Shown piece after piece: positions 2,231-22,180 of a DNA stretch of 64,000 bases. Source of the stretch: an uncultured Candidatus Babeliaceae bacterium. Its GTDB lineage: Bacteria; Babelota; Babeliae; Babelales; Babelaceae. The translations under genes and the position numbers were made by a program. The stretch spans positions 832,001 through 896,000 of the forward strand of contig OY969927.1 of the NCBI GenBank assembly GCA_963704655.1, read 5' to 3'. A model generated the notes under the pieces. The model was not told the DNA's origin, made no database searches, and worked only from the letters and a program-made list of their open reading frames with translations. Each line of letters opens with the position of its first letter. The first letter of the stretch is position 1.

Positions 2231-2417
2231 AAAATTTACTAAGCTAAGATTTTGCTTAGTAAACTCTAGAAAGTCTTAACAATGTATGTCAATAAATAAT
2301 TTTAAAATCAAGATGAAAAGCTAAATCCCCTTCGGGCAATATCTTGTTTTTCTAAGAACGACGGTTCTATTTTAATCAGTAGATTGTTTAATTTTTTTTT
2401 TAATCAGGAGAACAAGT

Positions 2418-3086
2418 ATGTTCAAGAAATTATTATTAACATTACTATTTGTAGCCACGGCTAAAACGAACTGCATGGCAGATCAAAGCGAAGAAGCAGA
2501 ATCAAAAAGCCGTAAATGCAAAACATTCCAAAATTTAAATGTATGTAAGAATCTTAACGTTGGCGGAACAGTAACGGCCAATAACTTTATGACTTCATCT
2601 GGCCAACTATTTGGTGGTATTCGCAATTATGCTGTGTTAACTAACCAGGCAGAAGTAATTTCAGGCGATAACATTCTTTGGGCCGAAACACCTGCAAGCA
2701 ACTTGTCTTCAGGTATCAGTTTTAACGCAACCACAGGTTCTATAACTCTTCCAACATCAGGACTTTTCCTTGTACAATACACAGTAAGATTTACAAGAAC
2801 CCCATATGATGGCACTTCTATTGCAACAGCACAATTACAGCAAACAGTTGCAGGAACACCTACGAATATAACCCAGCCAGCTATTACTACCTATCTTGGA
2901 ATAGACGGCATAACTTTCACTGTCCCACAATCCAATGCTTTAGTGACAGGCTACGCTCTTGTGAGTGTAACATCATCAGCAAACAATACCCTTAATTTAG
3001 TAGCTACATTTGATGACAATGCCACCCTTCCTGCAACTACAGGCACAGACGCAAATGCGGAAATGGTAATATTGCAACTTAACTAA
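2418..3086 (+). CDS. Secreted protein, possible C1q/BclA-CTD-like jelly-roll domain (copy 1)
   Basis: AGGAG RBS, signal peptide, 'ITLPTSGLFLVQYTV' motif; near-identical to the next gene. Confidence 0.75.
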   Translation: MFKKLLLTLLFVATAKTNCMADQSEEAESKSRKCKTFQNLNVCKNLNVGGTVTANNFMTSSGQLFGGIRNYAVLTNQAEVISGDNILWAETPASNLSSGISFNATTGSITLPTSGLFLVQYTVRFTRTPYDGTSIATAQLQQTVAGTPTNITQPAITTYLGIDGITFTVPQSNALVTGYALVSVTSSANNTLNLVATFDDNATLPATTGTDANAEMVILQLN

Positions 3087-3133
3087 AAAAAAATGTAGAT
3101 TGTTTAATTCTTTTTTTAATCAGGAGAACAAGT

Positions 3134-5553: not shown

Positions 5554-7413
5554 TCAACTAAATGCAGCTGCCTGCCTAATTGGCCTTAAAAGACGATGAT
5601 AAACATAGGGCTCCCCATCTTTTTCACCAAAGGTATATTCTGCTCTGCAGTTCTGTTCTGCGCCTGTGGTAAGATTTTTGCGAGTAACTTCAGCAATAAG
5701 TTCATCTTCCGCCTCTGAAGAACCATCTTTCATAAAAGGAACAAGCTCCCCCACATATTGAATAACATAATCAAGCATCTGGGCAAAAGTATGATGCTCT
5801 ATGGTACTTTTTGCCAATTTCATCGCTTTTTTACCTTGTCCCTGCCTTTTTAAAATACGTTCATGATAACGAAGGCCCTTAATTTCTGCATAATTACGAT
5901 TAAGATCCGCTTTTGCCTTAACAATAAGCTCTTCATCTTGCTGCGGGTCCTCGATAACAAATATTTTATTTATTGGATCAATTTTACTCACAGAGCTACC
6001 ATCATCTACTTTGAAATTGTTGTTCCATTCTTTTGTGGTAATAGCAAATGGATCTTGCTCAGGCACTTTTGCAAATTGGCTAGAAGATTCGCCTTGCGTA
6101 ACTAGCGCAGGCTCTTCAAGAGTGGCCTTTTCTTTGCCTTTTTTTGATTTAGTTTTTTTCTTTTCTTCTTCTTGCAATAATTGCTGTTCTGCCCGCTCGG
6201 CTTTAATCTTTTTTATTGCTGGAAATAACTCATCCGTATCTAAATATATATCATCAAACTTATTCTTAGACTCTTCTATGAGCTTGAAACCTTCATTTTC
6301 ATTTTTATTTACACCAATACCAAAAAGGCGCATGTACCCGCGCGTTAAAATTACAGATCTTTGCGTGTTGTCAGTATCATTATAAATTTTTTTGAAATAC
6401 TCTTGTGCTTTTGCCTCATCTTTTTCAACACCAAACCCATAATGATATGCTATGGCTAGTTGCAATAGACCAATCGGCAGAATATCTATTTTGTTTGCTT
6501 CCGCTTGTTCAAGTATACGGATACCCTCTTGTTGTTCACCTTGTGTAATAAGTATCGTGCTATATAAAAATGCTGCTAAGTAATCTATTTTTGCCAGCTC
6601 TTTAAGCGATCCTTTTGCAGCTTGAGTATCGCCAACTATTTTTTTAGTCCATATTAGGCGCGCAATATGCGCCTTACCGCGTGCGCTATTTGCTTTCTCA
6701 AAATATTCACGGGCCTTAACTATGTTCGGTTTATGATCATTAAAGCCTTTTTCAGCCAAAAGGCCCAATCCAATGCATGCCAATTCGTAATTGTGAAAGG
6801 ATCGAATATGCTTTTCTGCAGGTAAATTTATAACCCTTAAAAACAAATCATGCGCTTTTTGTAAATCTTGTGGTATAACTTCATTTCCTTTGAAAAACTC
6901 AACAGCTAAATTGTAAATCCCCAGGGGATTATTTTTTGATGCCAATTTTTGATAATACTCAACAGCTGTTTTAACATCTTTTGGACCACCCTTCCCTTCA
7001 TTTAAAAGCTTGGCTAAATTGCTCATCGCATCATCTTCATAAGCAGTATGCATATCAATTGCTACTAGATAGTATTTTCTAGCCCTTCTATAATCTTTAT
7101 TTTCTTGATATTCAAATCCTAGATTATAGTTTTGTTCTAGAAATCCATGCGCTACAGCTTCAGACATATATCTTAATTTCTTATCTTTATCATTTTCTTT
7201 TATAGCCAAATCAGCCAAACGATTATAAGCATCAGGAATCCGATCACGCACCTGAAGAAGCATTCTTTCCGCTTCTGGCAAACTGTTATTACCCGCTATT
7301 AACATAGTCGCAAAATTATATATATATTCAGGATTGGCATCTGGGCCCGGATATCTAAAAAGTGCTGTGATTGAAGTAAAAGATAAAACTAGCAATACGA
7401 TTAAATAGTTCAT
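5554..7413 (-). CDS. Secreted Sel1-like repeat protein with uncharacterised C-terminal domain
   Basis: Sel1 motifs (NLAKLLNEGKGGPKD..AVEYY; LAIAYHYGFGVEKDEAKA); paralogue of 23247..25163. Confidence 0.9.
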   Translation of the reverse strand: MNYLIVLLVLSFTSITALFRYPGPDANPEYIYNFATMLIAGNNSLPEAERMLLQVRDRIPDAYNRLADLAIKENDKDKKLRYMSEAVAHGFLEQNYNLGFEYQENKDYRRARKYYLVAIDMHTAYEDDAMSNLAKLLNEGKGGPKDVKTAVEYYQKLASKNNPLGIYNLAVEFFKGNEVIPQDLQKAHDLFLRVINLPAEKHIRSFHNYELACIGLGLLAEKGFNDHKPNIVKAREYFEKANSARGKAHIARLIWTKKIVGDTQAAKGSLKELAKIDYLAAFLYSTILITQGEQQEGIRILEQAEANKIDILPIGLLQLAIAYHYGFGVEKDEAKAQEYFKKIYNDTDNTQRSVILTRGYMRLFGIGVNKNENEGFKLIEESKNKFDDIYLDTDELFPAIKKIKAERAEQQLLQEEEKKKTKSKKGKEKATLEEPALVTQGESSSQFAKVPEQDPFAITTKEWNNNFKVDDGSSVSKIDPINKIFVIEDPQQDEELIVKAKADLNRNYAEIKGLRYHERILKRQGQGKKAMKLAKSTIEHHTFAQMLDYVIQYVGELVPFMKDGSSEAEDELIAEVTRKNLTTGAEQNCRAEYTFGEKDGEPYVYHRLLRPIRQAAAFS

Positions 7414-7728: not shown

Positions 7729-7805
7729 GTGCCCATAGCTCAGCTGGATAGAGCAACGGATTTCTAATCCGTAGGTCGTAGGTTCGAATCCTACTGGGCA
7801 CACCA
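7729..7805 (+). tRNA. tRNA-Arg (anticodon TCT)
   Basis: Acceptor stem GTGCCCA/TGGGCAC, anticodon arm ACGGA-TTTCTAA-TCCGT, T arm GTAGG-TTCGAAT-CCTAC, encoded CCA; 77 nt. Confidence 0.98.
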
Positions 7806-9260
7806 ATTTCCAGTTTTTGCAGTTTCCATCACCACCCCAAATACGGGTTTAAGCTCCACGTCGATCTTTCCATCATTATAAGAACAGTTGGATGTTAAGA
7901 GCTCAATTATTCTTCTTTTAGCTGCAGCATTTCCATTTTTAAACAGCTCAGCCGCATTTTTCGCAAGTTCGATGATAAAGCGTGCATTTTCAAGATATTG
8001 TGTATCTGCCTTTTGAACAGCCAATAATTTTGTTAGCAGTTCTTCTTTTTCTGCCGACCATTTTTGAGAATTGGTCTTCCAGAATTCTTCACTGATTTTG
8101 CCATCGAGCTTATCTAAATAGACCTGATCGATTCTATTTTGTAATAAGCGTATCTGTTTTTCAAGCTGGGCAACCAAGCTATTATGGTATTCAATTTTGT
8201 CTTTTAAACTTTCACGAATTCCCTGTAAAATTATCTCTTGGTTTTCACTGGATACGTATAGGTTATCAACTATTATCGTAAATTGTTCTTCGATAGCTTC
8301 CTGTCGTATATATTCTTTCTTGCAGTTTCCTTTTGAAGTCGTGCAATAGTAATAAATATACTTATCCTTTTTAAGATCAGCTGTGAGCATACAGCCACAT
8401 TTGCTGCATTTTATAAGATTGGTGTAGGGAAATATCCCTTTCTTTGACTTGCTTTTACGTGGATTAAGAAGAACTTCCTGAACGCGTTGAAAGAGCTCCT
8501 TGCTCACCAATGGTTCATGGGAAGCATTTTCATATTTTTTGCCATTCCAGTAAAAAACACCCGTATAGAATTCATTTTTAAGGATAGTTTCAACTTTGCT
8601 GGTGTAGAAGTTTTTGCCATTACGATAAACCATCCCATCAGCTAACATCTTCTTGCGCAAAGACAGAAGAGAGTATGATCCAGTAGCATACAGTTCAAAC
8701 ATTTTCTTAACATATGGTGCTGTCTGTGGATCTACTAAGATGACCTTTTTGTCGCCTTTAAAGGTGTTAATATAACCATAAGGAGCTGTTGAAGGGTATG
8801 TTCCTTGAGCTGCTTTTTCAGTCATGCCTTTTTTAACTTCTTCTGATAGATTATCAATGTGATTTTTAGCCATAAGTGCTTTGATTCCAAAAATGAATTT
8901 CTCATTAGAACGTGCTTCTTTGCTAAGTATTACGTTCTCTTTAACAAGATGAATCCTTATATCACAGTCTTGTACGAGACGTTCCAGTAAGGCGTAATCG
9001 AACATGTTTCGTAAAAGTCGATCTGTTTTTTCTACTAAAAGATGCTTAACTGATCTGTTTTCATCAAAGAAAGCGAGCATTTTATTAAATTCTGTACGCC
9101 CAGCCTTTTTTGCAGTTTCTGCGTTAGCAAATTCTTTTACAATCGTATAATTGTTTTTAGCGGCATATTCATGTAGAACTTTAAGCTGCGCAGGGATCGA
9201 GAAACCTTCGACTTCTTGGTCTTTTGATGAAACTCGGGCGTAGATGACGGCTTTATTCAT
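7791..9260 (-). CDS. Large serine recombinase (integrase)
   Basis: YARVSS catalytic motif, DRLLRN, APYGY, zinc ribbon CSKCG..YYYC..C, coiled coil; 3' end overlaps the tRNA antisense. Confidence 0.96.
   Translation of the reverse strand: MNKAVIYARVSSKDQEVEGFSIPAQLKVLHEYAAKNNYTIVKEFANAETAKKAGRTEFNKMLAFFDENRSVKHLLVEKTDRLLRNMFDYALLERLVQDCDIRIHLVKENVILSKEARSNEKFIFGIKALMAKNHIDNLSEEVKKGMTEKAAQGTYPSTAPYGYINTFKGDKKVILVDPQTAPYVKKMFELYATGSYSLLSLRKKMLADGMVYRNGKNFYTSKVETILKNEFYTGVFYWNGKKYENASHEPLVSKELFQRVQEVLLNPRKSKSKKGIFPYTNLIKCSKCGCMLTADLKKDKYIYYYCTTSKGNCKKEYIRQEAIEEQFTIIVDNLYVSSENQEIILQGIRESLKDKIEYHNSLVAQLEKQIRLLQNRIDQVYLDKLDGKISEEFWKTNSQKWSAEKEELLTKLLAVQKADTQYLENARFIIELAKNAAELFKNGNAAAKRRIIELLTSNCSYNDGKIDVELKPVFGVVMETAKTGNWCAQ
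7796..7805 (+). repeat. att core, tRNA-proximal junction
   Basis: GGGCACACCA, the last 10 nt of the tRNA. Confidence 0.8.
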
Positions 9261-9288
9261 GATGCCTTTTCCGGATGCGTGTGAAATT

Positions 9289-9714
9289 TTATTTTTGTTT
9301 TGTTTTCATCCAAATAGCTACAATAGCACCTAACGCCAAAAATGTTAGCCCAAGTAAATCATTATTCGTGCTTTGCCTTTGGATTTGAGCTTGCTCTAGA
9401 TGTATTTGTTGCCGATAAGCCCTTTCTTCTTGCTGAAGTCGTTCTTGGTGAGCGATCTCTTCCTGCCGCAATCGTTCTTGGCGGGCAATTTCTTCTTGTT
9501 GCAGCTGCTGTTGATAGGCTATTTCTTGCAATTTTTGTTGGTGCATTAATTCTAATAGTTCGCGTTGTGCGGCCATTTCTCTTTGATGAGCTTGTTCAGC
9601 AGTCTTTTGGCGAGCAAGAGCCTCGAGAGCCTCGCCAATCCCTTTGCCTAGTGCGCTGCCAAAACGCGCTCCCGTACTTTCTGTCGGAGTAAATCCATTA
9701 GAAAAATTTGTCAT
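9289..9714 (-). CDS. Coiled-coil protein with Gly-rich N-terminus and C-terminal TM helix
   Basis: FGSALGKGIGEAL; 11-aa repeats of QEEIARQERL type; hydrophobic C-terminus. Confidence 0.75.
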   Translation of the reverse strand: MTNFSNGFTPTESTGARFGSALGKGIGEALEALARQKTAEQAHQREMAAQRELLELMHQQKLQEIAYQQQLQQEEIARQERLRQEEIAHQERLQQEERAYRQQIHLEQAQIQRQSTNNDLLGLTFLALGAIVAIWMKTKQK

Positions 9715-9737
9715 TATATTTCTTTATATTATTTTAA

Positions 9738-9932
9738 TTAGCTTCTTGAATAAGAATTGACGTATTTATACCCATTACTTGGCTTAAAATAACCTTTGGT
9801 ACTTTTAGTTTTAATCCTGCCTGTAGATTTGCTAACTTTTCCAAAGCCATCATACATAGCCTTCTTTGAAAGTAATTGAGTGGTTGAAATAAGGCATATA
9901 ATAGCGAATATTTTTACAAAATAGTGTTTCAT
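9738..9932 (-). CDS. Small basic secreted protein
   Basis: Signal peptide; KGYFKPSNGYKYVNSYSRS resembles the GYxRxxGxYVxxxxRS motif of small mobile-element proteins. Confidence 0.65.
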   Translation of the reverse strand: MKHYFVKIFAIICLISTTQLLSKKAMYDGFGKVSKSTGRIKTKSTKGYFKPSNGYKYVNSYSRS

Positions 9933-9962
9933 TTGGGTTTTTTCGATTATTGACAGATATTG

Positions 9963-10145
9963 TTATTCTTTTGATTCGACTTCTTTTTCATACAACAGAC
10001 GAATGCCTTCGCAAATAATTGTAGATCGGTCCGTTTTATTGCGATCACGTAGGCGCTTAATGAAGATCTCATCTAAGAGGTGTTCATCGGTTAACGACAT
10101 ATAAACGGTAGTTTTTGCCTTTTTTGGAACTTCCGATTCTTGCAT
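9963..10145 (-). CDS. Putative ribbon-helix-helix DNA-binding protein
   Basis: KTTVYMS strand followed by two helices (RSTIICEGIRLL); AAGGA RBS. Confidence 0.65.
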   Translation of the reverse strand: MQESEVPKKAKTTVYMSLTDEHLLDEIFIKRLRDRNKTDRSTIICEGIRLLYEKEVESKE

Positions 10146-10328
10146 ATTTTTCCTTAAATAATGAATTTTCTCTTATCTATAATGGCTCAATTAGAGAAAG
10201 ACGTCAAGTAATTAAACAAGTTAAATGCAAAAACTACTTTACATTATGTCATTTTTTGATAATTTTATAATAAGAAATAAATAATATAGCTTAATTAACA
10301 AAATCCAAAGATTATTGGGGAGGATATT

Positions 10329-12812
10329 TTGTCTACTATTGAAATTGGGATTGATTTAGGAACCACAAATTCCTCTATCGCGGTCATTCAACAAAATGCG
10401 GTACAGGGCATTAAAAATGCTTCAGGGGAAGAAAGTACCCCTTCTGTCATCTACGCTGATAAAAATGGAAACATTGTTGTCGGGTCGAGAGCGAAGAGAA
10501 TTATGAATAATTCCAAAGAAAACCTGCAAAATAGCAAGGCCGAAATCAAGCGTTTGATGGGTACAGCAGAGACTATTTTTTTCCCCAACTTGAATAAAAA
10601 AATGCTTCCCGAAGAAATTTCGGCAGAAATTCTGAAAGTACTTATAAATGATGCTAAGAGGAAGTACCCAGGGCTGCTTTTAGATGCGGCTGTGATTACG
10701 GTCCCTGCTTATTTTTCTACTGTGCAATCTGAGGCGACGAAAAGAGCTGGAGTTTTAGCGGGTTTGAGGCAAGTAGTTCTTCTTCAGGAACCAATTGCCG
10801 CAGCAATCGCATATGGTTTTCTTAATCAGAAGAACGAAAATTGGCTTGTATATGACCTAGGTGGCGGTACTTTTGATGTTGCTCTCGTAGCATTGCGTGA
10901 TGGATTTCTTACAGTTCTTGCCCATGCGGGAGATAATTTTCTCGGTGGTAAAGACTTCGACGCTGCGATCATACAAAATTTAATTCTTCCATCTCTTTCT
11001 ACCAAAGGTATCGTTTTAGATCCGTCAACTCACTCAGAAATCTTTAGTTACTTGAAAGAACTTGCTGAATTAGCAAAAATTGAACTTACCACGTGCGAAA
11101 GGACAACTATCGATATCGATGTCCAAGTAAATCAAGCCCAGGTCGAGCATTCTATTGAAATAACAAGGACAGATCTGCTGGAAAGCTGCAAACATTTGCT
11201 TGAAAAAACGGTCGACCTTTGCAAGAAGACAATCAGTGACGCCAATGTGGATCCAGCAACAGTTCAAAGAATTGTTCTTGTCGGTGGGCCGACACAAATG
11301 CCAATCTTACAAACTTTTTTGAAAAATTCCTTGCGAATCAATGTAGATGGAGGTTTAGATCCTCTACTAGTGGTTGCAAAAGGTGCTGCTATGTTCGGCA
11401 ATCAAACAGTAATCACTACCCCTGAAGGACAAGGGGATATCGACATATCAAACGTTTCCTGCCAGCTCGAAGTAAATTACAATCCAGTAACATCCGATGA
11501 TGAACAAATTGTCACAGGCAAGGTTTTGCGCATCACTGGTGCATCTCAGCCATATTCAGTTCAGTTTGCAAGCTCTGATGACTCCTTTGCGTCTGAAGAG
11601 ATTCTTATTAAAAATGGCAAATTTATACTGACGCTTCCTACAGGCAAAAAAGGTACATCATATTGGATTTATGTTAAAGACAATGATGGTCAGCTGATTA
11701 CTTCAGCTCCTGAAAGCATTCAAATTAATAGAGGCATTTCTATCATGGGAGCCCCCCTTCCTTATTCAATTGGCGTATCCGTGATTTCTCTTTCTTCCCA
11801 CAAAGGTTATGCTGATCCGACCGAGACAATAGAATTCTTTTTTTCTAAAAATAGCATTTTGCCCCTTAAAGAAAAAAAACGCTTTTATACTCTTGCCGAT
11901 TTAAGAGCAGGATCCTCCGAAAATGCTCTCCCTATTTGCATTTATGAAGGCGAATCTCTTATCACAAATCGAAATACTTTAGTCTGCCATTTGGCAATCA
12001 CAGGAAAAGCAATTTCTAAAGATTTGAAAAGAGGCACCCCGGTCGACATCACAATTGAAGTTAATGAATCAAGAGAGTTGAGTGTGATGGCCTATCTTCC
12101 GGATTCTGATATTACCCTTAATGCAAGAGAAACTTTGTATTTTGATGCTGCTAAAATTGACGAGGTAAAGAAGGATTTTACAGAGCAGGTAACACGCTCA
12201 GAATCCATAGCTGCATCTGCAGGGCCAATAAATGAAACCAATGGCATCAAGAATATGATTAAAGATATTCAATCTACTATCGATGACTCAGGATCAGACT
12301 CAGATCAGCAAAGAAAGGCAGAAAAACAAGTAAAAGACTTGATGATGGCCCTTGATCGAATTGAGGCGAAAACAAAATTTAATAGCAATGTTGCTACTTT
12401 CTGGCAAGAATGCCAGGAGCTCACTGATTATCTGGAAGATTGTAATCCGCCTGATAAACGCACCGAATACGAAGCCACATATAATACTCTTCGTAAAGAA
12501 GGATTAATGGCTATATCTAAAGAAGATGCGATATTATTAGAGCATATTGTTCAAAAATTGAGTCGACTTAATTTCAGATGTGTGTATAACGATGTTCGTT
12601 ATCTGACCTCATGGATTAAAGATTTAATAAAACAGGTGCAGGAAAAGGCCCATCTCCATCCTACTCTTCCAGACTTAATCAACAGAGCCAAAGATGCCCT
12701 AGCTAAATTAAATGTAAAAGAGATGCAGGAGCTTATTCATGCGCTTGATCCATTTACGGAGGAAGAAGGAAAGCATCAGGTTCGATTTGTGAAGTCGGGA
12801 ATTACGTTATGA
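10329..12812 (+). CDS. Atypical Hsp70-family protein (827 aa, not housekeeping DnaK)
   Basis: GIDLGTT, TVPAYF, EPIAAA, YDLGGGTFD, LGGKDFD and LVGG motifs; TTG start with GGAGG RBS; ~110-aa insert before the substrate-binding domain. Confidence 0.95.
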   Translation: MSTIEIGIDLGTTNSSIAVIQQNAVQGIKNASGEESTPSVIYADKNGNIVVGSRAKRIMNNSKENLQNSKAEIKRLMGTAETIFFPNLNKKMLPEEISAEILKVLINDAKRKYPGLLLDAAVITVPAYFSTVQSEATKRAGVLAGLRQVVLLQEPIAAAIAYGFLNQKNENWLVYDLGGGTFDVALVALRDGFLTVLAHAGDNFLGGKDFDAAIIQNLILPSLSTKGIVLDPSTHSEIFSYLKELAELAKIELTTCERTTIDIDVQVNQAQVEHSIEITRTDLLESCKHLLEKTVDLCKKTISDANVDPATVQRIVLVGGPTQMPILQTFLKNSLRINVDGGLDPLLVVAKGAAMFGNQTVITTPEGQGDIDISNVSCQLEVNYNPVTSDDEQIVTGKVLRITGASQPYSVQFASSDDSFASEEILIKNGKFILTLPTGKKGTSYWIYVKDNDGQLITSAPESIQINRGISIMGAPLPYSIGVSVISLSSHKGYADPTETIEFFFSKNSILPLKEKKRFYTLADLRAGSSENALPICIYEGESLITNRNTLVCHLAITGKAISKDLKRGTPVDITIEVNESRELSVMAYLPDSDITLNARETLYFDAAKIDEVKKDFTEQVTRSESIAASAGPINETNGIKNMIKDIQSTIDDSGSDSDQQRKAEKQVKDLMMALDRIEAKTKFNSNVATFWQECQELTDYLEDCNPPDKRTEYEATYNTLRKEGLMAISKEDAILLEHIVQKLSRLNFRCVYNDVRYLTSWIKDLIKQVQEKAHLHPTLPDLINRAKDALAKLNVKEMQELIHALDPFTEEEGKHQVRFVKSGITL

Positions 12813-14626
12813 ACATCCAGCTACCGCAGGTTTTGATTAGAAATTCATTCAATATACTAGGCCTTTCTTCTTCTGCTACTTTAAAGGAAATTAGAAAAAG
12901 AACTCAGCAACTTTTACAACTTGCAAAAATTGAAGAGATGCAAAAGTTTGATGCTGATATCGGGCATGTCTGTGAATTTCGAAATGAGAACGAAGTTCGG
13001 CTTGCAATGGAAAGAACATCGAGCGTCAAGGAACGCCTACGGGAAACCTTTTTTTGGTTCGATGACCATAATATAGAAAATCAGAAAGCCATTGCCCTTA
13101 TTTCGCAAGAGAATTATCGTGAAGCTATAGCTATCCTCGAAAAAACGAATGCTGCAAGCATGGATTGGTTAGAGCATAAGAACTTAGCCCTGGCTTTGAT
13201 TTTCCAAGCCTTTGCTTCCTCGGATCTTAGTAGTTTTAGTCACTCATTAGAGTTATGGAAACGAATCGTAGAGTCTGAAGTTTTTTGGAAGTTCTATGAA
13301 AAAAATTATATGCTTCATGATGAGTTTGGAACGTCTACATTCTTATTTCAGGAATTTAGAAGCTCAATTTACGAATCTTTATCCGCAATGACAGTTTCTT
13401 TCTATCATCAAACTAAAAATCCTGAAGCCATAGGCATTTATTTTTCTGAATTCGGTCAAATAGAAAAATCTATAGACTGTGAGGTTATTCAGCCAATCGT
13501 GACTAAGATTAAAAAAGAAATAGAAGACTTAGAAAAAATAGCTTCAGAATCGAGCAGCGATGCGAGCTTGATAAAGCAGGCTCTAGAAAAAATTCATAAA
13601 TACTTTGTGAAACTGGATCAATTTAAACTCTTCGAATATTCGCCATTAACTATCCTAAAAAATGACTCTGCTGAAAAATTACGATCTATTTCTATTGATA
13701 TCTATAATCAGAGTGAGAATGCTGAGTTAGCCTCATTGTTCCTTGATCAAAGTGCAGAGCTTGCTATTTCTGATGTAATTGTAAGAAAGATTGAGTCTGA
13801 CAAAAAAGTGATAAAAAACAATGAATTATGGGAGGCAATTTCTACCAGGTTCAATCGAATAAAAGAATTAATCGCAGAGAAAAAAATCGAAGAAGCTAAA
13901 AGTGTTTATTACGATTTGGACAATGAACTGGCTAGGCAAAATAACGGGTCATCTAAAGATACTAGAATCGTTCTGCTTATTCGCCTTTGCTATCAATTGA
14001 TGGGGAAGGGACATGAACTTTTCAATAAAAAAAAGTTTGGTATCAAGATTCTTGCGATTGGCGCTTTTTTAAATCGGCAAAATCATAAAGATGCGATACA
14101 TATTTTTGAGTATGTAATTGAAATATTGATGAATAAAATCTCTATATTAAGTTTTATAGATATTTACAATGACAGATCTTATCTCTTAAAAGAAATAGAA
14201 AATATATCAAACTCTCTAGAAAATTGTGAACTTTCTGATTTAATAAATGAACATGAACCGTACTTAAAATCACTAGAAATGTTTGCCGATGGGCAAGAGA
14301 ATGAGGATACGCAAGCTGTAATACATGTGCTAGGTTTTGCCATATACTTTAGCATTTTGTATCGCAGGATTCGTGGTATTATGCAAAGAAAAATGTGGCA
14401 ATGGGTAGCTTGTGGAACGGTAATTGCCTTCTATTTCTTAGTAATTATGAATAATGACAAGTGCGAATCAAAAATTGAGAAAGCTTTAACCTACGAAGAA
14501 AAAAGTATTATTGAATATTTGCAGGAAAATAGCCCGGAAGTACTTAAGAATATTAGAAGGGAGGGTTATTCTGATAAACAGATAGCCCAATATGCTTTAG
14601 ACCAAATAGCGAATGAGAAAAAATGA
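12809..14626 (+). CDS. Degenerate J-domain-like, helical-repeat protein with C-terminal TM segment(s)
   Basis: NSFNILGLSSSATLKEIRKR resembles J-domain helices I-II but has no HPD; hydrophobic WQWVACGTVIAFYFLVIM; ATGA overlap with the Hsp70 gene. Confidence 0.75.
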   Translation: MNIQLPQVLIRNSFNILGLSSSATLKEIRKRTQQLLQLAKIEEMQKFDADIGHVCEFRNENEVRLAMERTSSVKERLRETFFWFDDHNIENQKAIALISQENYREAIAILEKTNAASMDWLEHKNLALALIFQAFASSDLSSFSHSLELWKRIVESEVFWKFYEKNYMLHDEFGTSTFLFQEFRSSIYESLSAMTVSFYHQTKNPEAIGIYFSEFGQIEKSIDCEVIQPIVTKIKKEIEDLEKIASESSSDASLIKQALEKIHKYFVKLDQFKLFEYSPLTILKNDSAEKLRSISIDIYNQSENAELASLFLDQSAELAISDVIVRKIESDKKVIKNNELWEAISTRFNRIKELIAEKKIEEAKSVYYDLDNELARQNNGSSKDTRIVLLIRLCYQLMGKGHELFNKKKFGIKILAIGAFLNRQNHKDAIHIFEYVIEILMNKISILSFIDIYNDRSYLLKEIENISNSLENCELSDLINEHEPYLKSLEMFADGQENEDTQAVIHVLGFAIYFSILYRRIRGIMQRKMWQWVACGTVIAFYFLVIMNNDKCESKIEKALTYEEKSIIEYLQENSPEVLKNIRREGYSDKQIAQYALDQIANEKK

Positions 14627-15696
14627 TAAAATTTGCCAAACCATCATTTCCGCCTGGATGGATTTTGCCTGACGGAGCGAAGATTTTAAAAAGAATCGAT
14701 AAGCAAGAATTTGCTGAAGTGTTTGAGCTGAATACCGGAGAGTATCTTTATTTATTTCATGAAGAAAAAATTGCAAAAAAACTCAAAAGCCGCGGAATTT
14801 CACATGAAATCTATTTTATTAGCGGTGCAAAAGCTATTGGGAAAAAATATTCTGACCATAAAGATGGTGATCTTCCAGAAAGGTTGAAAAATATTATCCA
14901 AAGAAGAGGGCTAGATGCTATTGCAGGTATGACTGCACTTAAGAACACTTTAGTTAGAGATGTTATTCAGCCGTTTCTAAACTGGGAGGCATATGAAAAA
15001 TATGGCGTTACCCCATCTAATGGTATTCTTTTATTCGGCCCTCCTGGTTGCGGTAAAACATTTATAGCAAAAAAACTTGCAGAGGCAATGAAAGCTGAGC
15101 TTATTGAATTGAGCGAGGGAACCGTTGGTAGCCCTTATATTCATGCAACCTCCACAAACATTGTGCAGGCGTTTCAAAAAGCTGCGATGGTAGCTCCATC
15201 TGTACTCTTTGTAGATGAAATTTCAGGATTAATGCCAAGAAGAGATGGACTATCTTCACAAGAGCAATACAGAGAAGCAGAAATCAGCGAATTTTTGATG
15301 CAGATGGAAAGCAGTGTAAAGAATAAAGTCCTAGTAGTTGCAGCAACTAATTTCCCAGAGAAAATCGATCCGGCAATTTTACGTTCTGGGCGAATGGATA
15401 AAAGAATCTTTATCTCACCCCCTGATGCAGAAGCAAGATGCGAATTATTGCACCTGTTTTTAGAAGAAAGACCCATTGATAAAGAAATCGACTTTGAAGA
15501 ACTTGCCAGGATCACAGAAGGGCTAATTTCTTCTGACCTAAAATTAATAGCTAACAATGCTGCCCTGAAGGCGCTACATAAGAATGCATTAATTTCTATG
15601 GAGTTATTAGCAGAAGAAGCTTCACAGTTTAAGCCATCCTTAACTCAAACTGAACTAAATCGATATCGTGAATTCGAAGGCTACAATAGAGGTTAA
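14623..15696 (+). CDS. AAA+ ATPase (classic clade, single module)
   Basis: GPPGCGKT, LFVDE, AATNFPEKIDPAILRSGRMDK second region of homology; ATGA overlap. Confidence 0.95.
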   Translation: MIKFAKPSFPPGWILPDGAKILKRIDKQEFAEVFELNTGEYLYLFHEEKIAKKLKSRGISHEIYFISGAKAIGKKYSDHKDGDLPERLKNIIQRRGLDAIAGMTALKNTLVRDVIQPFLNWEAYEKYGVTPSNGILLFGPPGCGKTFIAKKLAEAMKAELIELSEGTVGSPYIHATSTNIVQAFQKAAMVAPSVLFVDEISGLMPRRDGLSSQEQYREAEISEFLMQMESSVKNKVLVVAATNFPEKIDPAILRSGRMDKRIFISPPDAEARCELLHLFLEERPIDKEIDFEELARITEGLISSDLKLIANNAALKALHKNALISMELLAEEASQFKPSLTQTELNRYREFEGYNRG

Positions 15697-16156
15697 AATC
15701 TTTTTTATTAATAATAACGACGGAGTGCTTCTGCGCATGTTGAAATTTAATGATAACTTTAATTCAGAGGCATTTTAATTCAGACAAAAGTGATAAAGCA
15801 TCTAAAAATCGTTTAAATATACAGCCCAATATTAAGTTAAAATAAATATCTTTTTCGTTATTAAGGCAAAGAACTTAATTATGATAATTTTGTAAATGCT
15901 TTAATACGTTGGTATTTCGTTATTGATATATTGCATAAATCCATCTATACGCGGAGATCTCTTCCTTTTTGGGATTTTGCTTGCATTTCTTTTTAACGAC
16001 AAGATAAGGTAAAAAAATAAATAGAACTTATACACGAGAAGAATAATGGATTATGAAACTCTTCAATCGCTTGCTACCTTTACGTTTTTTTTATCAGTTT
16101 ATAATTGGTTTAAAATATGTAAGTGCAAATGTGAGCGAAAATAAAGAGGTATCAAA

Positions 16157-16378
16157 ATGATGGGCGCTGTTTTAGAAATTCTATCAATGATAGTATTTTT
16201 TTCTGTATTCCCATTAACTTTTTATTTAATTTTCTATGTGGTTACTAAGATTGGAAAAAATAAGATAGTAACAGATGAAAAGACCAACCAACACAATCAA
16301 TTGGTTAACCTGCTTCAAACGATTATCTGGCTCCTAATTGTTTGCATAGTGCTTTTAATTACTCGATGGCACTATTAG
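16157..16378 (+). CDS. Small two-TM membrane protein
   Basis: GAGG RBS; two hydrophobic segments. Confidence 0.65.
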   Translation: MMGAVLEILSMIVFFSVFPLTFYLIFYVVTKIGKNKIVTDEKTNQHNQLVNLLQTIIWLLIVCIVLLITRWHY

Positions 16379-16414
16379 ATTTTTCTTTACTCAATCTCGC
16401 TGTATGGCACTTCA

Positions 16415-16816
16415 TCACATATATTTTGGGATTTCTACAACAACAACTTTGGTTTCCCCTTTATTTTCTGATTTATCCCTTAAGTTCATCAACCACTTAC
16501 GATATTTGGGGTCATACAAAGGCATTGTATGCAGAACTATCTGCTTATCTAACACCCCTTCTTGAGCAAGGCGTTCACGTCTTGAGCCTATTAATGTTAA
16601 GGCTATATCGTAAGCTTTGGCAAAGTATTCTGAGTTAGCTGGCAAATCATGAAAGATTTTTGGTGACATCATAATGCTAATTGGGAATTCATCTAAGGTA
16701 AGCGCATCTGGGTTCTTCGCCCATTCGGCAAACTCATCTGCCAATTTTTGATACTCTTCTTCACTTGTAGGTGCTGTACGAAATTTGAGCAATTTATTTT
16801 TTTTAGAAGCTGCCAT
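16415..16816 (-). CDS. Putative terminase small subunit-like protein
   Basis: 133 aa; helical/HTH-like N-terminal half, 'YFAKAYDIA' helix, terminal beta strand KVVVVEIP; coupled to the HGG gene. Family call is by resemblance only. Confidence 0.5.
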   Translation of the reverse strand: MAASKKNKLLKFRTAPTSEEEYQKLADEFAEWAKNPDALTLDEFPISIMMSPKIFHDLPANSEYFAKAYDIALTLIGSRRERLAQEGVLDKQIVLHTMPLYDPKYRKWLMNLRDKSENKGETKVVVVEIPKYM

Positions 16817-17069
16817 ATGATATCTCCTGGCTATAGATTAAATCTTTTAGTGTTCTGTGGCTTTTTCGTATCTCGCTAATTAAGCTACGGTTATGTGTCC
16901 GTTCCGCCTTTGCAACTTTGGTTTTATGGCCATGCTTTTTGGGTATCGCTCCCCCATGGTAATAGCATCTGCCATTTTTCATAGCTGCTTGACGGCACGA
17001 TAAACCGAAATTACTTCTTGCTTTAGCACCGCATCTTGGAAGCGATTTAAAATTCATCTTGAAGCGCAT
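16803..17069 (-). CDS. HGGxSTG-domain protein
   Basis: PRCGAKAR...CRQAAMKNGRCYYHGG motif. Confidence 0.85.
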   Translation of the reverse strand: MRFKMNFKSLPRCGAKARSNFGLSCRQAAMKNGRCYYHGGAIPKKHGHKTKVAKAERTHNRSLISEIRKSHRTLKDLIYSQEISYGSF

Positions 17070-17152
17070 AAAATATCTTTCGTAACTGTTTTATATGAAA
17101 ACGACGAGAATTTTTTCTCGTCGTTATAAAGCTATTTTAGAATGTATAAAAA

Positions 17153-17500
17153 TTATTCTCCCAACAAACCGTGATCTTTGAGCTCTTTAATAGCATCAGG
17201 AGAGTCTTGCAAAAGCGTTTGAATTAATTGCGGTTTTCTCATTTGCATCATTGTCGCCATCATAGGATTTTTAAGATACTGGCTATAATCATATAATGCC
17301 AATTCAACTGCATTGCTAACGCCTAAAGCTTCCTTTTGTTGCCCAGCCAAGTTTTTAACAATGTCTGTTTTTTCAATAAAATGGTCAAAGCCAGCTTGTT
17401 GTAATCGAGCTGTTAAGACCTTAGCTTCTGGTAAAGTTATCAAAACTGCTTGAAGCGAAGCTCCAGTAACTAGTAAACTTAAAAACAAAAGTTTTTTCAT
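17153..17500 (-). CDS. Small secreted hypothetical protein (moron-like insert)
   Basis: Likely start MKKLLFLSLL at 17500 with AAGGA RBS; hairpin downstream at ~17099-17126. Confidence 0.75.
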   Translation of the reverse strand: MKKLLFLSLLVTGASLQAVLITLPEAKVLTARLQQAGFDHFIEKTDIVKNLAGQQKEALGVSNAVELALYDYSQYLKNPMMATMMQMRKPQLIQTLLQDSPDAIKELKDHGLLGE

Positions 17501-17591
17501 AATATTCCTTTGTAGATTGGTTTGTTTTAATTTAAGACTTTCTAAAGAAATTATAGAATGAATACCAAAAAATATCAAAGAAGCGCATGGG

Positions 17592-18044
17592 CTATTCTCC
17601 ATTTTTAGATTTGCCCCCTACTTGAACCATCGCATTAAGCACAGCGTTGCCCTCAGAATGCACGTTGTAGTTAACGTTAATAGTTTGACTCTTGCCACGG
17701 TACTGTTGAAGTGTATTAAGAGCCTGGTGGCTAAGTCTTATCATCATCATTCCCTGCCCTATAATGTTGTAATTATCTTCTTCAATAATGGACATGGCCT
17801 TTAAGTGAAGCGCGACATATTGTGCAGCAAGTATAGACTCAACAGTATCTTTGGGATTAATACCTCGTATTAAGGCAATAACCGCATCAACATCCTTTGC
17901 TGAAGGATCATAAATAGACGGGCCATAGATCATGAGCATTGCACGATTTACAAGCAGCCTTGCCGCATCTTGATTATCGCAGTTTATAGCTTCAACAAGA
18001 AGTGAAATTTGACTTGGCAACGATATTTTTTTTGTTTTCGCCAT
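17592..18044 (-). CDS. Conserved mobile-element protein of the type usually found upstream of HGGxSTG genes
   Basis: PKDTVESILAAQ..ALH and QTINVNYNVHSEGNAV motifs. Confidence 0.7.
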   Translation of the reverse strand: MAKTKKISLPSQISLLVEAINCDNQDAARLLVNRAMLMIYGPSIYDPSAKDVDAVIALIRGINPKDTVESILAAQYVALHLKAMSIIEEDNYNIIGQGMMMIRLSHQALNTLQQYRGKSQTINVNYNVHSEGNAVLNAMVQVGGKSKNGE

Positions 18045-18055
18045 GGATATTCCTC

Positions 18056-18287
18056 GGTTGAAAGGTTGAACGACTTCATTATCATGTTCAAATTATAATT
18101 CTAGCTCTAGGTCGATGGATTGCTGTCGATAAAAGGCTTGGTTGAAGGGTTGATAAATCTTATTACTCATTTTAAGTATCGATCTTGATCAACCCTTCAG
18201 TTTTAATTATTCATTATTAAATAAATATAGCCTATAGGATGTTTTTTAGGTTGAAACTACATTTCAACTTTTTTCAACAACTTCAAC
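18056..18287. repeat. Iteron-like direct and inverted repeats (putative origin)
   Basis: GGTTGA(A) at 18056, 18064, 18140, 18148, 18249; inverted TTCAAC at 18263, 18273, 18282; 12-bp inverted repeat 18143-18154/18188-18199. Confidence 0.6.
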
Positions 18288-19949
18288 TATTACAGGTTTA
18301 TAGATCCAATCCTTTCGGTGCTCTTTTTTTTCAAAAGTTACTCTACCACTGTCGATTAAAGTTTGAAAAATATACTCATATTCTTTAGAACCACCCTTCA
18401 ACTTTTTTGAGGTAATAATTTGCGCCCACGTAACAGGTCTTTTTGAAGCAGCAGCCCATTTGCAAAGAGCTTCATGCATTATACGGCACTTCCGTTCATG
18501 CTCAGACTCTCCCAATTCTCCCTCAAAAAGCTGAATTGTGGACTGTATAGCGCGATGCAAGATCGCAAAAGCAGCCCAGAGGGCTTCCTCGCTTATATCT
18601 TTTGTAGTCGGATCTATAAAAAGCTGTATGATCATTGCTAACTTTAAAAGATACGGACTCCATCTTTTTAAGTATGGGTCTAAGATTTCTCGACTTCGGT
18701 CGCTATAAGCTTTTGGCATATCATTGATTTTTTTATGCATCGCTTCAAATACTGCTTTTGCAGAGCCTGCAAGAGGATTGAAGACGTAATTGTCACTTAT
18801 CGCATCTAAAACATCCATTATTTCTGCTTCAATTTCATGATCCGTTTTTTCTGTGTGGGCAGGCAAAGCAGGTGGAACTTCTTCTTGATGAGGTGGCGTA
18901 AAAATCAAAAAGCGGGCGAAAAATCCACTAGGGATATCCGTTATTTTAAGGTTATCTTGAATCCAAGGTAAAGTAGAAACGCCACATATGGAAAAGCAAG
19001 GGCGTTCTAATATACAATCGCCCTGTGTTTTGGTTTTATATCTATAAGATGGTGGAACATCATAAAGTTCGGTGAATATAGCTTTTAAATCATTATTATG
19101 GTTTTTATCAAAATTTTGTAACCATGCTCCAAATTCACTGGCAAGAATAACTCCTTGATGCCCTTGGCTTAGATGTTCGAGTAGGGCCTCTGCTGTCATT
19201 TTATTAGGCAAAATGACGTCTTGTCTTGAAATCGCAAGTATATCTTCCTCGATCATTTTTTTTTCTTTTGGATCTATTGTTATGCGGAGTGATGCATGTA
19301 ACTTTTTGATCTGATCAGTTATGATTTTATTTTTTACCCAAGCAAGGTTGGCCCCTTTATTAAGTGCCGTGCTCTTAAATTGTCCGCTTTTTGTGATGGA
19401 TAGTATCCATAAGTTAGGAAAAAGAGTTTGAAAATATGGGTATGAAACACGCTTTCCTAAAATAGCAGAGATTGTAGCCATCACAGACATTGTTATCATT
19501 ATTGGGTGCGCATTTGTTGTTTCGCAAATAGAGAGTATATAAGTACTGAGTGGAGGCGGTAGAAGCGATGGAGTAAAACCTTCGCAAGGATCGTCTTTTT
19601 TTTGACCAACCACAGACAATTTCTCGAGCTCTAAAGGTAGAAGATCATTCAAGCCGGCTTTGTCACAGAGTGAGTTAAATTCGGCTTGTTCATTTTCATT
19701 TAGCGGATGCGAATCATAAGTATACTCAGCGCCATCGCCCCAGTACATACATGTTAAGGATTCTTGATTATTTCTTAACGTAACTGATGCCATATACATA
19801 GCTGGTTTATTATAAGGTTGGGCTATATATTCGTAAGTATTACCATCTGGTGTGATCGGTCCATCTATGGCCAGATCATGTTCAGCCATATGTTGTCGAC
19901 ATTCTTCAAATAAATTACGTTTTTTTATGATATAATTAAGATTATTCAT
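18264..19949 (-). CDS. DUF3987/YfjI-like replication protein (helicase-like)
   Basis: NLWILSITKSGQFKST (Walker A-like), TAEAL, SEFG, SICGVST, SGFFARF motifs. Confidence 0.8.
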   Translation of the reverse strand: MNNLNYIIKKRNLFEECRQHMAEHDLAIDGPITPDGNTYEYIAQPYNKPAMYMASVTLRNNQESLTCMYWGDGAEYTYDSHPLNENEQAEFNSLCDKAGLNDLLPLELEKLSVVGQKKDDPCEGFTPSLLPPPLSTYILSICETTNAHPIMITMSVMATISAILGKRVSYPYFQTLFPNLWILSITKSGQFKSTALNKGANLAWVKNKIITDQIKKLHASLRITIDPKEKKMIEEDILAISRQDVILPNKMTAEALLEHLSQGHQGVILASEFGAWLQNFDKNHNNDLKAIFTELYDVPPSYRYKTKTQGDCILERPCFSICGVSTLPWIQDNLKITDIPSGFFARFLIFTPPHQEEVPPALPAHTEKTDHEIEAEIMDVLDAISDNYVFNPLAGSAKAVFEAMHKKINDMPKAYSDRSREILDPYLKRWSPYLLKLAMIIQLFIDPTTKDISEEALWAAFAILHRAIQSTIQLFEGELGESEHERKCRIMHEALCKWAAASKRPVTWAQIITSKKLKGGSKEYEYIFQTLIDSGRVTFEKKEHRKDWIYKPVIVEVVEKS

Positions 19950-20011
19950 TAAAATCTCTTTTCGATTGAGGCCATCTTGGCATATGGTGGCCTTATTTTG
20001 TTATGGATATG

Positions 20012-20278
20012 TCAATTTCTAACAATTTCTTCAAACTTTGAAACCACCTCCCTCTCTATATGTTCCGCTACTTCTTTATTAATTGGGTAAAAAACATTGA
20101 GTCCTCCAGTGTGGTACTTTCTGGTCGGGTAAGTTAATCGGTATCCGCCACGAGGGCGAGTGAAGATACCTATCGCACTCATATAAAAACAGTCATTTAA
20201 AATGAAGCTTGCGAATCCTACTAAGCCATTTTGGGGTTTAACAGGTGTGATCCGGATATTGTTGATTTGATATTGCAT
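20012..20278 (-). CDS. SpoVG-family nucleic-acid-binding protein
   Basis: INNIRITPV...GLVGFASFILNDCF...I...YPTRK...FYPINKE pattern. Confidence 0.8.
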   Translation of the reverse strand: MQYQINNIRITPVKPQNGLVGFASFILNDCFYMSAIGIFTRPRGGYRLTYPTRKYHTGGLNVFYPINKEVAEHIEREVVSKFEEIVRN

Positions 20279-20426
20279 ACGTTTTTCCTTTATTTACTTT
20301 TTGTTTTTGATCAAGTTCCATTAATGCTATAAACAGATCTGCAAGTTGCTTGCGCTCATCTGCTGATATCGGCTGTGTTCCTCGTGGAGGAATATGAATT
20401 TGCATTTTTAAGGATTTTTTAATCAT
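20238..20426 (-). CDS. Small hypothetical protein
   Basis: First ORF of the leftward replication operon, overlapping the SpoVG start. Confidence 0.5.
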   Translation of the reverse strand: MIKKSLKMQIHIPPRGTQPISADERKQLADLFIALMELDQKQKVNKGKTYAISNQQYPDHTC

Positions 20427-20447
20427 GGGGCTATTGTAACCCCATAT

Positions 20448-20479
20448 GTTAGGCCTAAATTAGGTCTAACTAGACTTAA
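20448..20479. promoter_or_regulatory. Putative operator array
   Basis: TTAGGCCTAA / TTAGGTCTAA / CTAGACTTAA; the first two form a near-perfect inverted repeat. Confidence 0.5.
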
Positions 20480-20580
20480 TCCACAAAGCGTTGAATCGTG
20501 CGTGTGTGAAGGTATTTAAAGAAATTGTAATGATGGCTATAGCTAAGAAAACTTTAATTTTAGCCCAAAAAGTATCGAAT

Positions 20581-21756
20581 TTAAGGAAGATATATGGGAT
20601 TAATACGAACAAAAGACATATCAAAATCAAGAAAATCTTTTAAACCGCATTCTGCGAATAGTTTCTGATTTATGTGCACACAAGCATCGTACATTGCCTG
20701 CATACCATCATCTTCAGGAGCTGTTCCGACAATATCTTCATACAAATTTTTAAAATAGCGAGGCAGATTTCTGTTGTTATATTTTCCTGAGAGATCTTCG
20801 AGTATTTTTCCAGGGTATCCATAAGCAGATCTGGGGTTTTTATTAGATTTTTTTTTATCCATTAATGCGAAGTTACGAAATTTTGCTATTTTCCCTTGAC
20901 ATGAGAAATATCTCTTTTTAGGACAATAACTCCAATCTGTGATTTTAGTTTGCGGAATAGACATGGCGTGAATCAGCCTTTTTTGAGCATAAAGATGTAA
21001 CTGCTGCATATACATTTTAAAATAGCGTGGATTAAATCCTTGCTCGGGGAATTGAGTATCTTTTGTTGGGCCTATGGCCCGATTAAGAGCATTGTTGCGA
21101 ACGGTCAAGGTAAGGTCATAAATAGGGTGTTGCTTATGCGCAATGGCTTTTCGCTCTTTATGCTGTTTTTGATCGTAAATCCAGAGAAAGTCTGTGAGGT
21201 TATCAAGAACCCACCATTCACGCGTTAGTTTTATACGATTAAAATGGTTATTTTCCTCAGACAACTCATCTGTATTGATATCAAATGTTATAGGTTGCTG
21301 AAGATTAGCCTCGTCGATCCTAGCATGTTGCCGTATAAAAGGACGATGATCTACTCTTGTGTCTCGTAACAAGAACTTAAAAATATTTATTAATATCGTT
21401 AGTTGCATGAAAAAAGCTACAACAGAAAGATCTTGTTTGATCCAAGGCAGCGAATTAATAATATTTGGATCATTTATATTTTTTTCCTTGATGTAAGCTT
21501 GCAGACTCTTACAGATTGACGAAGTTTTTCTAAATAACTTTTTCAGCAGAGAATTGAGTGGAGCAAAATCACCATGTCTGCTATTCCATATCTCGTTGGC
21601 TATTGGAACGAGTACTGGATCGGTTATGAATAATTGAGTAAACCTAGCAATTTTTGGGGCTGAAATTTCGATACTGTCGACATCCATGTATTCGCAAAGT
21701 ACGCCTAATTCCTCTAGAAGTATCTTTTCTGGGTTCATATTATTCTTGATATACAA
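20581..21756 (-). CDS. Hypothetical protein, possible C-terminal winged-helix domain
   Basis: 391-aa ORF; C-terminus 'AMYDACVHINQKL...FVRINP' resembles a wHTH recognition helix and wing. Confidence 0.65.
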   Translation of the reverse strand: MYIKNNMNPEKILLEELGVLCEYMDVDSIEISAPKIARFTQLFITDPVLVPIANEIWNSRHGDFAPLNSLLKKLFRKTSSICKSLQAYIKEKNINDPNIINSLPWIKQDLSVVAFFMQLTILINIFKFLLRDTRVDHRPFIRQHARIDEANLQQPITFDINTDELSEENNHFNRIKLTREWWVLDNLTDFLWIYDQKQHKERKAIAHKQHPIYDLTLTVRNNALNRAIGPTKDTQFPEQGFNPRYFKMYMQQLHLYAQKRLIHAMSIPQTKITDWSYCPKKRYFSCQGKIAKFRNFALMDKKKSNKNPRSAYGYPGKILEDLSGKYNNRNLPRYFKNLYEDIVGTAPEDDGMQAMYDACVHINQKLFAECGLKDFLDFDMSFVRINPIYLP

Positions 21757-21950
21757 CTTTTATGGTTTTACATTTTTAATTTCAACAAAAAGGATACAGT
21801 ATATTTTGATCTAACACATAATTTATTTGCAGAAAATCATCAGGTTTTGCCGTTAGCAGCAATTATTTTTTTAAGCTATTGCTGGTAGGAACAGACGAAT
21901 GGCGTAGATTATGCTATTTTCTATAAAAGAGTTGGTGAAATATTCCGATA

Positions 21951-21960
21951 GGGCACACCA
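21951..21960 (+). repeat. att core, distal junction
   Basis: Second GGGCACACCA, just beyond the last element gene. Confidence 0.8.
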
Positions 21961-22180
21961 TCCTGCGCCTATTCCAGCCGTCGCTGCCATGCAGCTGTGG
22001 CGGACAGGCCAGGCCAATTCACAGCCGAAGTGTGACAAAGCCTTGGCAGAGACGTATTGGCAAGCTACGCCAGACATGGTAATCTTAAAATAAACTCAAT
22101 TTTGTTGTTTTTAAGATAAAGCGCTCAGCGCACCATGCAGCTTATCTTCAGAAACAACTTTCATTAAATCGGTAAAAACT

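Follow-up and report, generated by a model that had tools for sequence, protein, structure and literature searches.

A tRNA-directed large serine integrase of a Babeliaceae integrative element, with a predicted attachment site in its own final codons and a putative degron-like tail in the excised form

Here, we describe a 64,000-nucleotide stretch of DNA from an uncultured Candidatus Babeliaceae bacterium (assembly GCA_963704655.1, contig OY969927.1, positions 832,001 to 896,000), hereafter the window, which carries a predicted 14.2-kb integrative element (7806-21960) seated in the extreme 3′ end of a tRNA-Arg gene. The phage-type attachment site (attP) of this element appears to lie within the final codons of its own integrase gene, such that the integrated and excised states would encode enzymes with different C-termini. 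Judging from sequence and from analogy with known systems, we consider the chances about even that the tail peculiar to the excised form is a C-terminal degron, which integration would remove from the integrase, amounting to a state-coupled switch. The enzyme itself belongs to the large serine integrases, combining a resolvase domain with the catalytic serine, a recombinase domain and a zinc ribbon with an inserted coiled coil, and we infer from the junction sequences that it recombines attP with the bacterial site, attB.

The integration target, a tRNA-Arg(TCT) gene with an encoded CCA end, occupies positions 7729-7805 on the plus strand and is the sole tRNA gene recognised in the window by ARAGORN and Rfam (76.2 bits for the Rfam tRNA match). 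The integrase gene, an open reading frame (ORF) with Pfam matches, overlaps it on the opposite strand: in its integrated form, it spans 7791-9260 (minus strand), encodes 489 amino acids and ends in ...AKTGNWCAQ*. The W, C and A codons are the reverse complements of 7803-7805, 7800-7802 and 7797-7799, respectively, antisense to the CCA end and acceptor stem of the tRNA, and the Q codon and the stop (7791-7796) are likewise tRNA-derived, the final four codons and the stop all being tRNA sequence. A 10-bp core, GGGCACACCA, occurs exactly twice in the window, both times on the plus strand. The tRNA-proximal copy (7796-7805) supplies, in antisense, the W-C-A codons plus one nucleotide, and the distal copy (21951-21960) forms the right end of the element. 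An earlier note on this DNA, made from the sequence alone, had placed the att core inside the integrase gene, in the W-C-A codons, and had described the overlap with the tRNA; coordinates and codons agree with it, and all of its sequence statements turned out to be correct.

Read from 21960 downwards, past the distal core, the integrase frame continues as WCA-LSEYFTNSFIENSIIYAIRLFLPAIA* up to a stop at 21871-21873; the other two frames close after 12 and 14 codons. This tail exon of 26 codons (21874-21951, minus strand) would come into frame with the integrase gene (int) only upon excision, with its first 8 or so codons doubling as the P′ arm of attP, and the predicted excised form would count 488 + 26 = 514 amino acids, versus 489 in the integrated form. 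The 26-residue tail is hydrophobic and Ala-terminal, ending in ..LPAIA. On the integrase strand, the circle junction is predicted to read AAAT-TGGTGTGCCC-TATCGG. Because the core copies and the open tail frame place its two ends there, we delimit the element to 7806-21960 (14,155 bp). A 68-amino acid ORF across the distal junction (21871-22077), which has no family match and has its upstream half in a conserved GC-rich host flank, was treated as spurious.

It is highly improbable, in our judgement, that the 10-bp repeat is fortuitous, with the island boundary lying elsewhere and the 26-codon frame being accidental. The repeat is short, and there is no longer tRNA fragment at the far end, a 25-mer of the tRNA 3′ end with up to three mismatches matching only itself in the window. 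However, the chance expectation for GGGCACACCA is 0.02 exact matches, two copies were seen in 0 of 100 shuffles, and the sequence following the core is homologous, as DNA and as protein, to the tails of natural homologues of 512-517 amino acids and to the distal junctions of four other genomes. Short cores are usual for serine integrases. A boundary elsewhere or a chance match, which the earlier note had named as fatal to its proposal, is thus contradicted both by the low expectation and by the recurrence of the junctions in homologues.

A tyrosine-type enzyme, as implied in the earlier note by the tRNA analogy, is not borne out, since the Pfam matches are those of a large serine integrase: Resolvase at residues 4-154 (PF00239, E-value of 2.7e-24), Recombinase at 178-264 and zinc ribbon at 279-327 (PF07508 and PF13408). 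All three domains are kept in the 489-amino acid integrated form. Across 55 homologues, residues Y7, R9, S11 and S12 are invariant, as are the four cysteines of the zinc ribbon (285, 288, 306 and 313). The AlphaFold2 model of a 512-amino acid long-form homologue, P0004, displays a confident serine-integrase body (mean predicted local distance difference test score, pLDDT, of 81.5), with long helices at 338-385 and 391-442, and its best matches in the PDB are complexes of the SPbeta, Bxb1 and phiC31 integrases.

Homologues were sought among 5.8 billion proteins; of the 4,612 relatives recovered, the best 120 (58-100% identity; from Dependentiae, Babeliales and Chromulinivorax records) were examined. 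Their C-termini are of three kinds. Most end at or right after a W-x-x motif (488-490 amino acids), many run past it into antisense tRNA (e.g., ..NWCARQDSNLRPTD), and 11 of the 120, measuring 507-525 amino acids, extend past it with a tail homologous to that of the window (e.g., ..NWCALSDYFSNFLYENINFFALKQLLYA). Full-length close homologues overall vary between 488 and 534 amino acids. None of the 11 long forms resides on a contig larger than 25 kb, versus 39 of the 109 other relatives (hypergeometric p = 0.010), a scarcity that fits free elements. When the tail region of P0004 was used as the query in a protein search, it retrieved itself only and no further tails.

Among 30 close loci, taken one per species genome, antisense tRNA (Arg, Ala, Glu, Asn or His) is found at the 3′ end of int in 28, and a second core was sought within 10 kb of each of these. 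In 4 of the 28 loci (L001, L003, L007 and L010), a distal core is followed by the same tail DNA, and in 19 no second core was present within that distance. Distal matches in L008 (8 nucleotides) and L020 (10 nucleotides) are followed by sequence unlike the family tail and were left out as probable chance, and the apparent matches in L025, L027 and L028 are self-matches arising from short upstream DNA. The contig of L015 ends inside such a tail. In L003, the tail exon (1949-2040) carries a 1-nucleotide deletion right after the core, and the tail is intact once read past it; this deletion is either a sign that the integrated copy has begun to decay or an error of sequencing in the assembly. With homologous tails present both in 11 of the 120 relatives and at the distal junctions of other genomes, the 514-amino acid excised form appears to be real. 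The frame left open past the distal core and its 514-amino acid product, as deduced in the earlier note, are therefore upheld by homologues with like tails. The tail emerges as a conserved family feature, found in the long homologues and at the distal junctions of L001, L003, L007, L010 and L056, the last from another phylum; a lack of conservation, named in the same note as counting against the idea, is contradicted by these homologous tails.

The family reaches well beyond these close loci. Relatives at 43-48% identity are found in Planctomycetota, Alphaproteobacteria, Acidobacteriota, Desulfobacterota, Omnitrophota and other phyla, and in 31 of 50 distant loci the end of int overlaps a tRNA in antisense, mostly tRNA-Asn. 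The distal junction was in reach for 1 of the 31 loci searched, L056, which uses tRNA-Gln and whose junction encodes ..VDCYRTFLVSPEGKELLEFAMSRIAA*. Collectively, the tRNA species targeted by the family comprise Arg, Ala, Glu, Asn, His, Gln and Ser. When a profile built from the 11 long forms was searched against 1.84 billion cluster representatives, 4,719 proteins were recovered at E-values of at most 1e-30; among the 149 new representatives listed, 49 end in tRNA antisense of the D/E-S-N type as judged by a simple pattern, and many others have tails of the attP type, in which the W-x6-hydrophobic-R-T spacing is constant. The ends of P0131, P0163, P0211, P0220, P0236, P0240 and others resemble tRNA antisense in the other two frames (..EARTRDL.., ..GFEPAT..), so clades would differ in where the core falls with respect to the reading frame.

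Reconstructed attP and attB sites have only the 9-10 bp core in common. The P arm of attP lies within the integrase coding sequence (7806-7830, minus strand), in the codons ...K-T-G-N preceding W, and seems constrained both as protein and as a DNA site: in 27 genes, the Thr codon before the core is ACT in 16 of 16 cases (28% elsewhere in the genes), the Gly codon is GGA in 18 of 19 (32% elsewhere) and the Lys codon is AAA in 24 of 24 (71% elsewhere). This bias at synonymous sites therefore argues for selection on the P arm as DNA besides selection on the protein. The B arm of attB (21961-21985, plus strand) is GC-rich host flank just downstream of the tRNA and is similar in three other genomes. 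On the opposite side of the core, a GGA(N)T motif stands equally far from it in B′ (the tRNA side) and P′ (the tail side), and a [GC]AAC motif, which in B′ is the antisense of the tRNA T-loop, is displaced outwards in P′ relative to B′ in each of the 6 elements examined, by 5 bp in L003, L007, L010 and L056 and by 6 bp in the window and L001. Such a displacement of the zinc-ribbon motif away from the centre in attP half-sites, by about 4-5 bp, is a mark of serine integrases and is encountered here as well; in the solved SPbeta complexes, the zinc-ribbon domain is positioned 4 bp nearer the centre on attB (excerpted text of PMC11722253). As an offset of 5 bp is no multiple of three, the motif is translated as D-S-N in the integrated forms but as R-T in those of the attP type. 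An inverted repeat, TTGGTG-N18-CACCAA, which attP had been said to gain, is present in the reconstructed attP of the window; however, it is absent from the attP sites of L001, L003, L007 and L010, its centre falls outside the 10-bp core, and we treat it as chance.

The stretch that supplies the B arm of attB is an observation in its own right. About 130 GC-rich nucleotides right after the tRNA-Arg are alignable in four genomes (window 21961-22100, L001 606-775, L003 1780-1949 and L007 994-1163) and contain GNRA-like hairpin motifs. For a structured RNA at 21961-22100, there was no Rfam match at E-values up to 1, and the consensus fold is weak. The stretch may represent a small RNA not described before or else a terminator region that is conserved.

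There is a small chance that the tail has no function at all, the frame simply being read through the P′ arm to the next stop and the conservation stemming from constraint on the att site at the DNA level. Indeed, the best-kept tail residues, L-S-[DE]-Y-F-[RT]-[NT], coincide with the P′ arm motifs GGA(N)T and [GC]AAC, a single DNA motif yielding D-S-N or R-T depending on the state; the first 7 or so residues are accounted for by the P′ arm, conservation beyond them is weak, and the L003 tail is frameshifted. Nevertheless, in 5 of 6 elements, the frame remains open for 15-20 codons past any plausible 25-bp half-site, in AT-rich DNA. It runs for 27-30 codons in five elements, and in a sixth once the 1-nucleotide deletion is read past, with the other frames closing after 3-17. 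Moreover, the conserved tail alanine is spelled GCC, GCA, GCT and GCG in four elements, and alanine is strongly enriched at the very end of the tails.

This enrichment is also an argument for a degron. Terminal alanine was found in 18 of 33 attP-type ends as defined by a regular expression, a class with about 6 false positives and about 12 members missed, versus 26 of 227 other ends (Fisher's exact test, 8e-8); set against an alanine content of 7.3% in the tail bodies, the 18 of 33 correspond to a binomial probability of 1e-12. Of 39 attP-type tails chosen by eye across a highly diverse superfamily, from cluster representatives that are not phylogenetically independent, 24 have a terminal alanine preceded by hydrophobic residues. 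The final three residues are LVA and LAA (three times each), LFA, IAA and TAA (twice each), then VAA, AAA, MAA and others, and the shortest tails consist of the att motif followed by LLAAA, FAIAA or ALLAG and nothing more. We liken the tail to a C-terminal degron because it is flexible, hydrophobic, Ala-ended and found only in the excised state; presumably, it would be of the class of ssrA-like, ClpXP- or Lon-type degradation signals.

Several observations weigh against a degron, beginning with the limits of the two tail sets just given. The tail of the window is identical to those of L003, L007 and L001 at only 13 of 24, 9 of 23 and 6 of 24 positions, respectively, with the enzyme bodies being 67-73% identical, and the L003 tail carries its deletion. 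Among the 39 tails, 15 lack a terminal alanine, including L010 (..SHL), P0045 (..CGC) and P0077 (..YGY). An amphipathic pattern, ..AI[KR]Q[LF]L.A, recurs mid-tail and would be superfluous in a pure degron. No ClpXP or Lon gene was present among the scanned ORFs of the window, and no transfer-messenger RNA gene, sought for a comparison with the host tag, was found in the window or in 80 loci. Finally, why selection should favour an unstable integrase while the element is excised is not obvious. The label "degron-like", as used in the earlier note, is accordingly sustained in part: the excess of terminal alanine (24 of 39 versus 26 of 227 other ends) supports it, and the 15 tails that end otherwise do not.

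There is a modest chance that the tail is instead a functional part of the enzyme, namely, an amphipathic C-terminal helix tuning activity, site choice or directionality, in which case the form encoded by the circle would be competent for integration and the behaviour of the truncated prophage form would differ, as reported for myxophage Mx8. In Mx8, attP is located inside int, and the new 3′ end alters specificity while the enzyme stays active (excerpted text of PMC6070905). In the AlphaFold2 model, the tail follows the last zinc-ribbon strands and a helix at 472-483, near the base of the coiled coil; directionality factors fused to the C-termini of the phiC31 and SPbeta integrases work there, according to the published text available in part; and the tails, with a median of 20 residues past the att motif, repeatedly carry ..I[KR]Q[LF]L.A. 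However, AlphaFold2 left the P0004 tail flexible, with no docking on the enzyme and no confident contact (pLDDT 55, 51 and 46), weak evidence given that these columns are covered by 11 sequences only. Furthermore, very short tails (8 residues from the motif) retain only the hydrophobic-Ala end, and a docking helix would not explain why the chain stops right after alanine in 24 of 39 cases. The ends of prophage forms carry from 0 to more than 25 tRNA-derived residues; therefore, arbitrary extensions appear to be tolerated at this position. No support emerged for the tail taking the place of a directionality factor, and the small conserved ORFs upstream of int, described below, are candidates for that role.

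In sequence terms, the crossover core is the tRNA acceptor end plus CCA, with the integrase codons before the core serving as the P arm and the first tail codons as the P′ arm. Joining of the two junctions restores the 514-amino acid gene, and the integrated gene ends in tRNA antisense at 489 amino acids. If the tail acts as a degron, the following scheme can be envisaged. Integrase made from an excised or incoming circle would be short-lived owing to its tail; integration would strip the tag and leave a stable enzyme with all of its domains, such that the half-life of the integrase would report the state of the element itself. Extended to the whole superfamily, the proposal becomes more tentative. 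It is possible, though doubtful, that across phyla these enzymes read the CCA/acceptor end as core and the T-loop as outer motif, carry an internal attP, and have a degron added or stripped by recombination, in which case the lifetime of the enzyme, and perhaps its directionality, would be set by the state of the DNA without a separate sensor. The constant combination of a CCA end and a T-loop mimic hints at how the family could move from one tRNA species to another.

Of the systems worked out in detail, the integration-dependent immunity of mycobacteriophages comes nearest. In BPs, attP is located in the repressor gene, the viral form of the repressor is destroyed via an ssrA-like tag and the prophage form is devoid of the tag; the BPs integrase itself bears a C-terminal proteolysis signal (both from excerpted text of PMC4557955). 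A bifidobacterial example has also been described (PMC6109161, in part). In BPs and its relatives (clusters G, I, N and P), as in the window, attP falls within the 3′-terminal part of an ORF and integration shortens the product, here from 514 to 489 amino acids. Unlike in those phages, where the split gene encodes the repressor and a tyrosine integrase sits alongside, the split gene of the window encodes the serine integrase itself, with a predicted degron, and the core amounts to merely 9-10 bp at the very end of the tRNA. The intP/intX system of Mx8 resembles the window in that attP is within the integrase coding sequence and integration generates a recombinant gene with a new 3′ end, altering rather than abolishing function; however, the Mx8 enzyme is a tyrosine integrase with a different att architecture, and the logic of a degradation tag does not feature in the excerpted account (PMC6070905). 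The SSV-type ("suicidal") archaeal integrases likewise have the site inside the integrase ORF of a tRNA-targeting element (PMC7253208, in part), but these are tyrosine recombinases whose gene is split and disrupted, whereas in the window the catalytic and DNA-binding domains remain intact and 26 residues are exchanged. Conversely, the SPbeta, phiC31, Bxb1 and A118/LI integrases share domain order and fold with the window enzyme, along with short att sites and an outer motif that is further out in attP, but their attB sites are in protein-coding or intergenic DNA and their attP sites outside int. The window family uses the T-loop and CCA end, with attP in the last codons.

Among smaller enzymes, filamentous phage phiRSM has a resolvase-like recombinase at a tRNA-Ser gene. 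Our literature searches turned up no account of a serine integrase whose gene contains attP or whose target is the 3′ end of a tRNA, although the supplementary tables of Durrant 2022, in whose main text "tRNA" is absent, and the TIGER/Islander database may list cases. According to a paper from 2015 (PMC4383910), no targeting of tRNA genes by integrases of the serine family was known, a view that a tRNA-targeting serine integrase contradicts. Serine integrases are major tools of genome engineering, and their control is thought to need a separate directionality factor; recombination that rewrites the C-terminus of the enzyme would be a new control principle. If the proposal holds, no earlier case of an isoform switch governed by the DNA state would exist among serine integrases, and the family would offer a natural, retargetable scaffold for tRNA-directed integration. 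The overlap also explains the ragged C-termini that gene callers assign to the family, many of which end in tRNA antisense peptides (e.g., ..QDSNLRPTD). For pipelines that mine integrases and att sites, the implication is to look for attP inside coding sequences and to test the reconstructed long form rather than the prophage form.

Among the island genes, no excisionase was recognisable with PADLOC or PHROGs, the only matches being an IetA-like AAA ATPase and a primase-like protein. Two small minus-strand ORFs upstream of int, of 64 (9738-9932) and 60 (9963-10145) amino acids, have tblastn matches in 5 and 6 of the 30 related loci, respectively. Neither has a Pfam or PHROG match; the 60-residue product looks like a ribbon-helix-helix protein, and both ORFs are candidates for a regulator or directionality factor. 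The recombination directionality factors of serine integrases have no common fold (PMC11795197, in part). Just upstream of int, at 9289-9714 (minus strand), is encoded a 141-amino acid Gln/Glu-rich protein with three 33-nucleotide tandem repeats at 9423-9527 and a hydrophobic C-terminus; no homologue of it was found in the 30 related loci.

The remainder of the element consists of a cargo operon and a backbone. The former (10329-15696, plus strand) encodes an Hsp70-like ATPase of 827 amino acids with a long C-terminal extension, a 605-amino acid protein of no known family and the IetA-like AAA+ ATPase. In the L010 element (about 1491-3104), which uses tRNA-Glu, the Hsp70-like and AAA genes have counterparts of 79% and 73% identity, respectively, and the trio is possibly a defence or stress module moving between elements. 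The backbone genes (16415-21756, minus strand), co-oriented with int, comprise small conserved ORFs, a DUF3987 primase/helicase-like gene (18264-19949), a SpoVG-like gene (20012-20278) and a 391-amino acid ORF; common to the related loci are the 60- and 64-residue ORFs, the SpoVG-like gene and several small ORFs. At 16415-20278, the backbone is closest to L015 5067-9854 (70-94% protein identity), and the integrases of the two elements are only 63% identical, a mismatch that suggests exchange of modules between elements. Outside the element, paralogous Sel1-repeat proteins of 619 (5554-7413, minus strand) and 638 (23247-25163, plus strand) amino acids, alike in their C-terminal halves, flank the tRNA and the element in inverted orientation.

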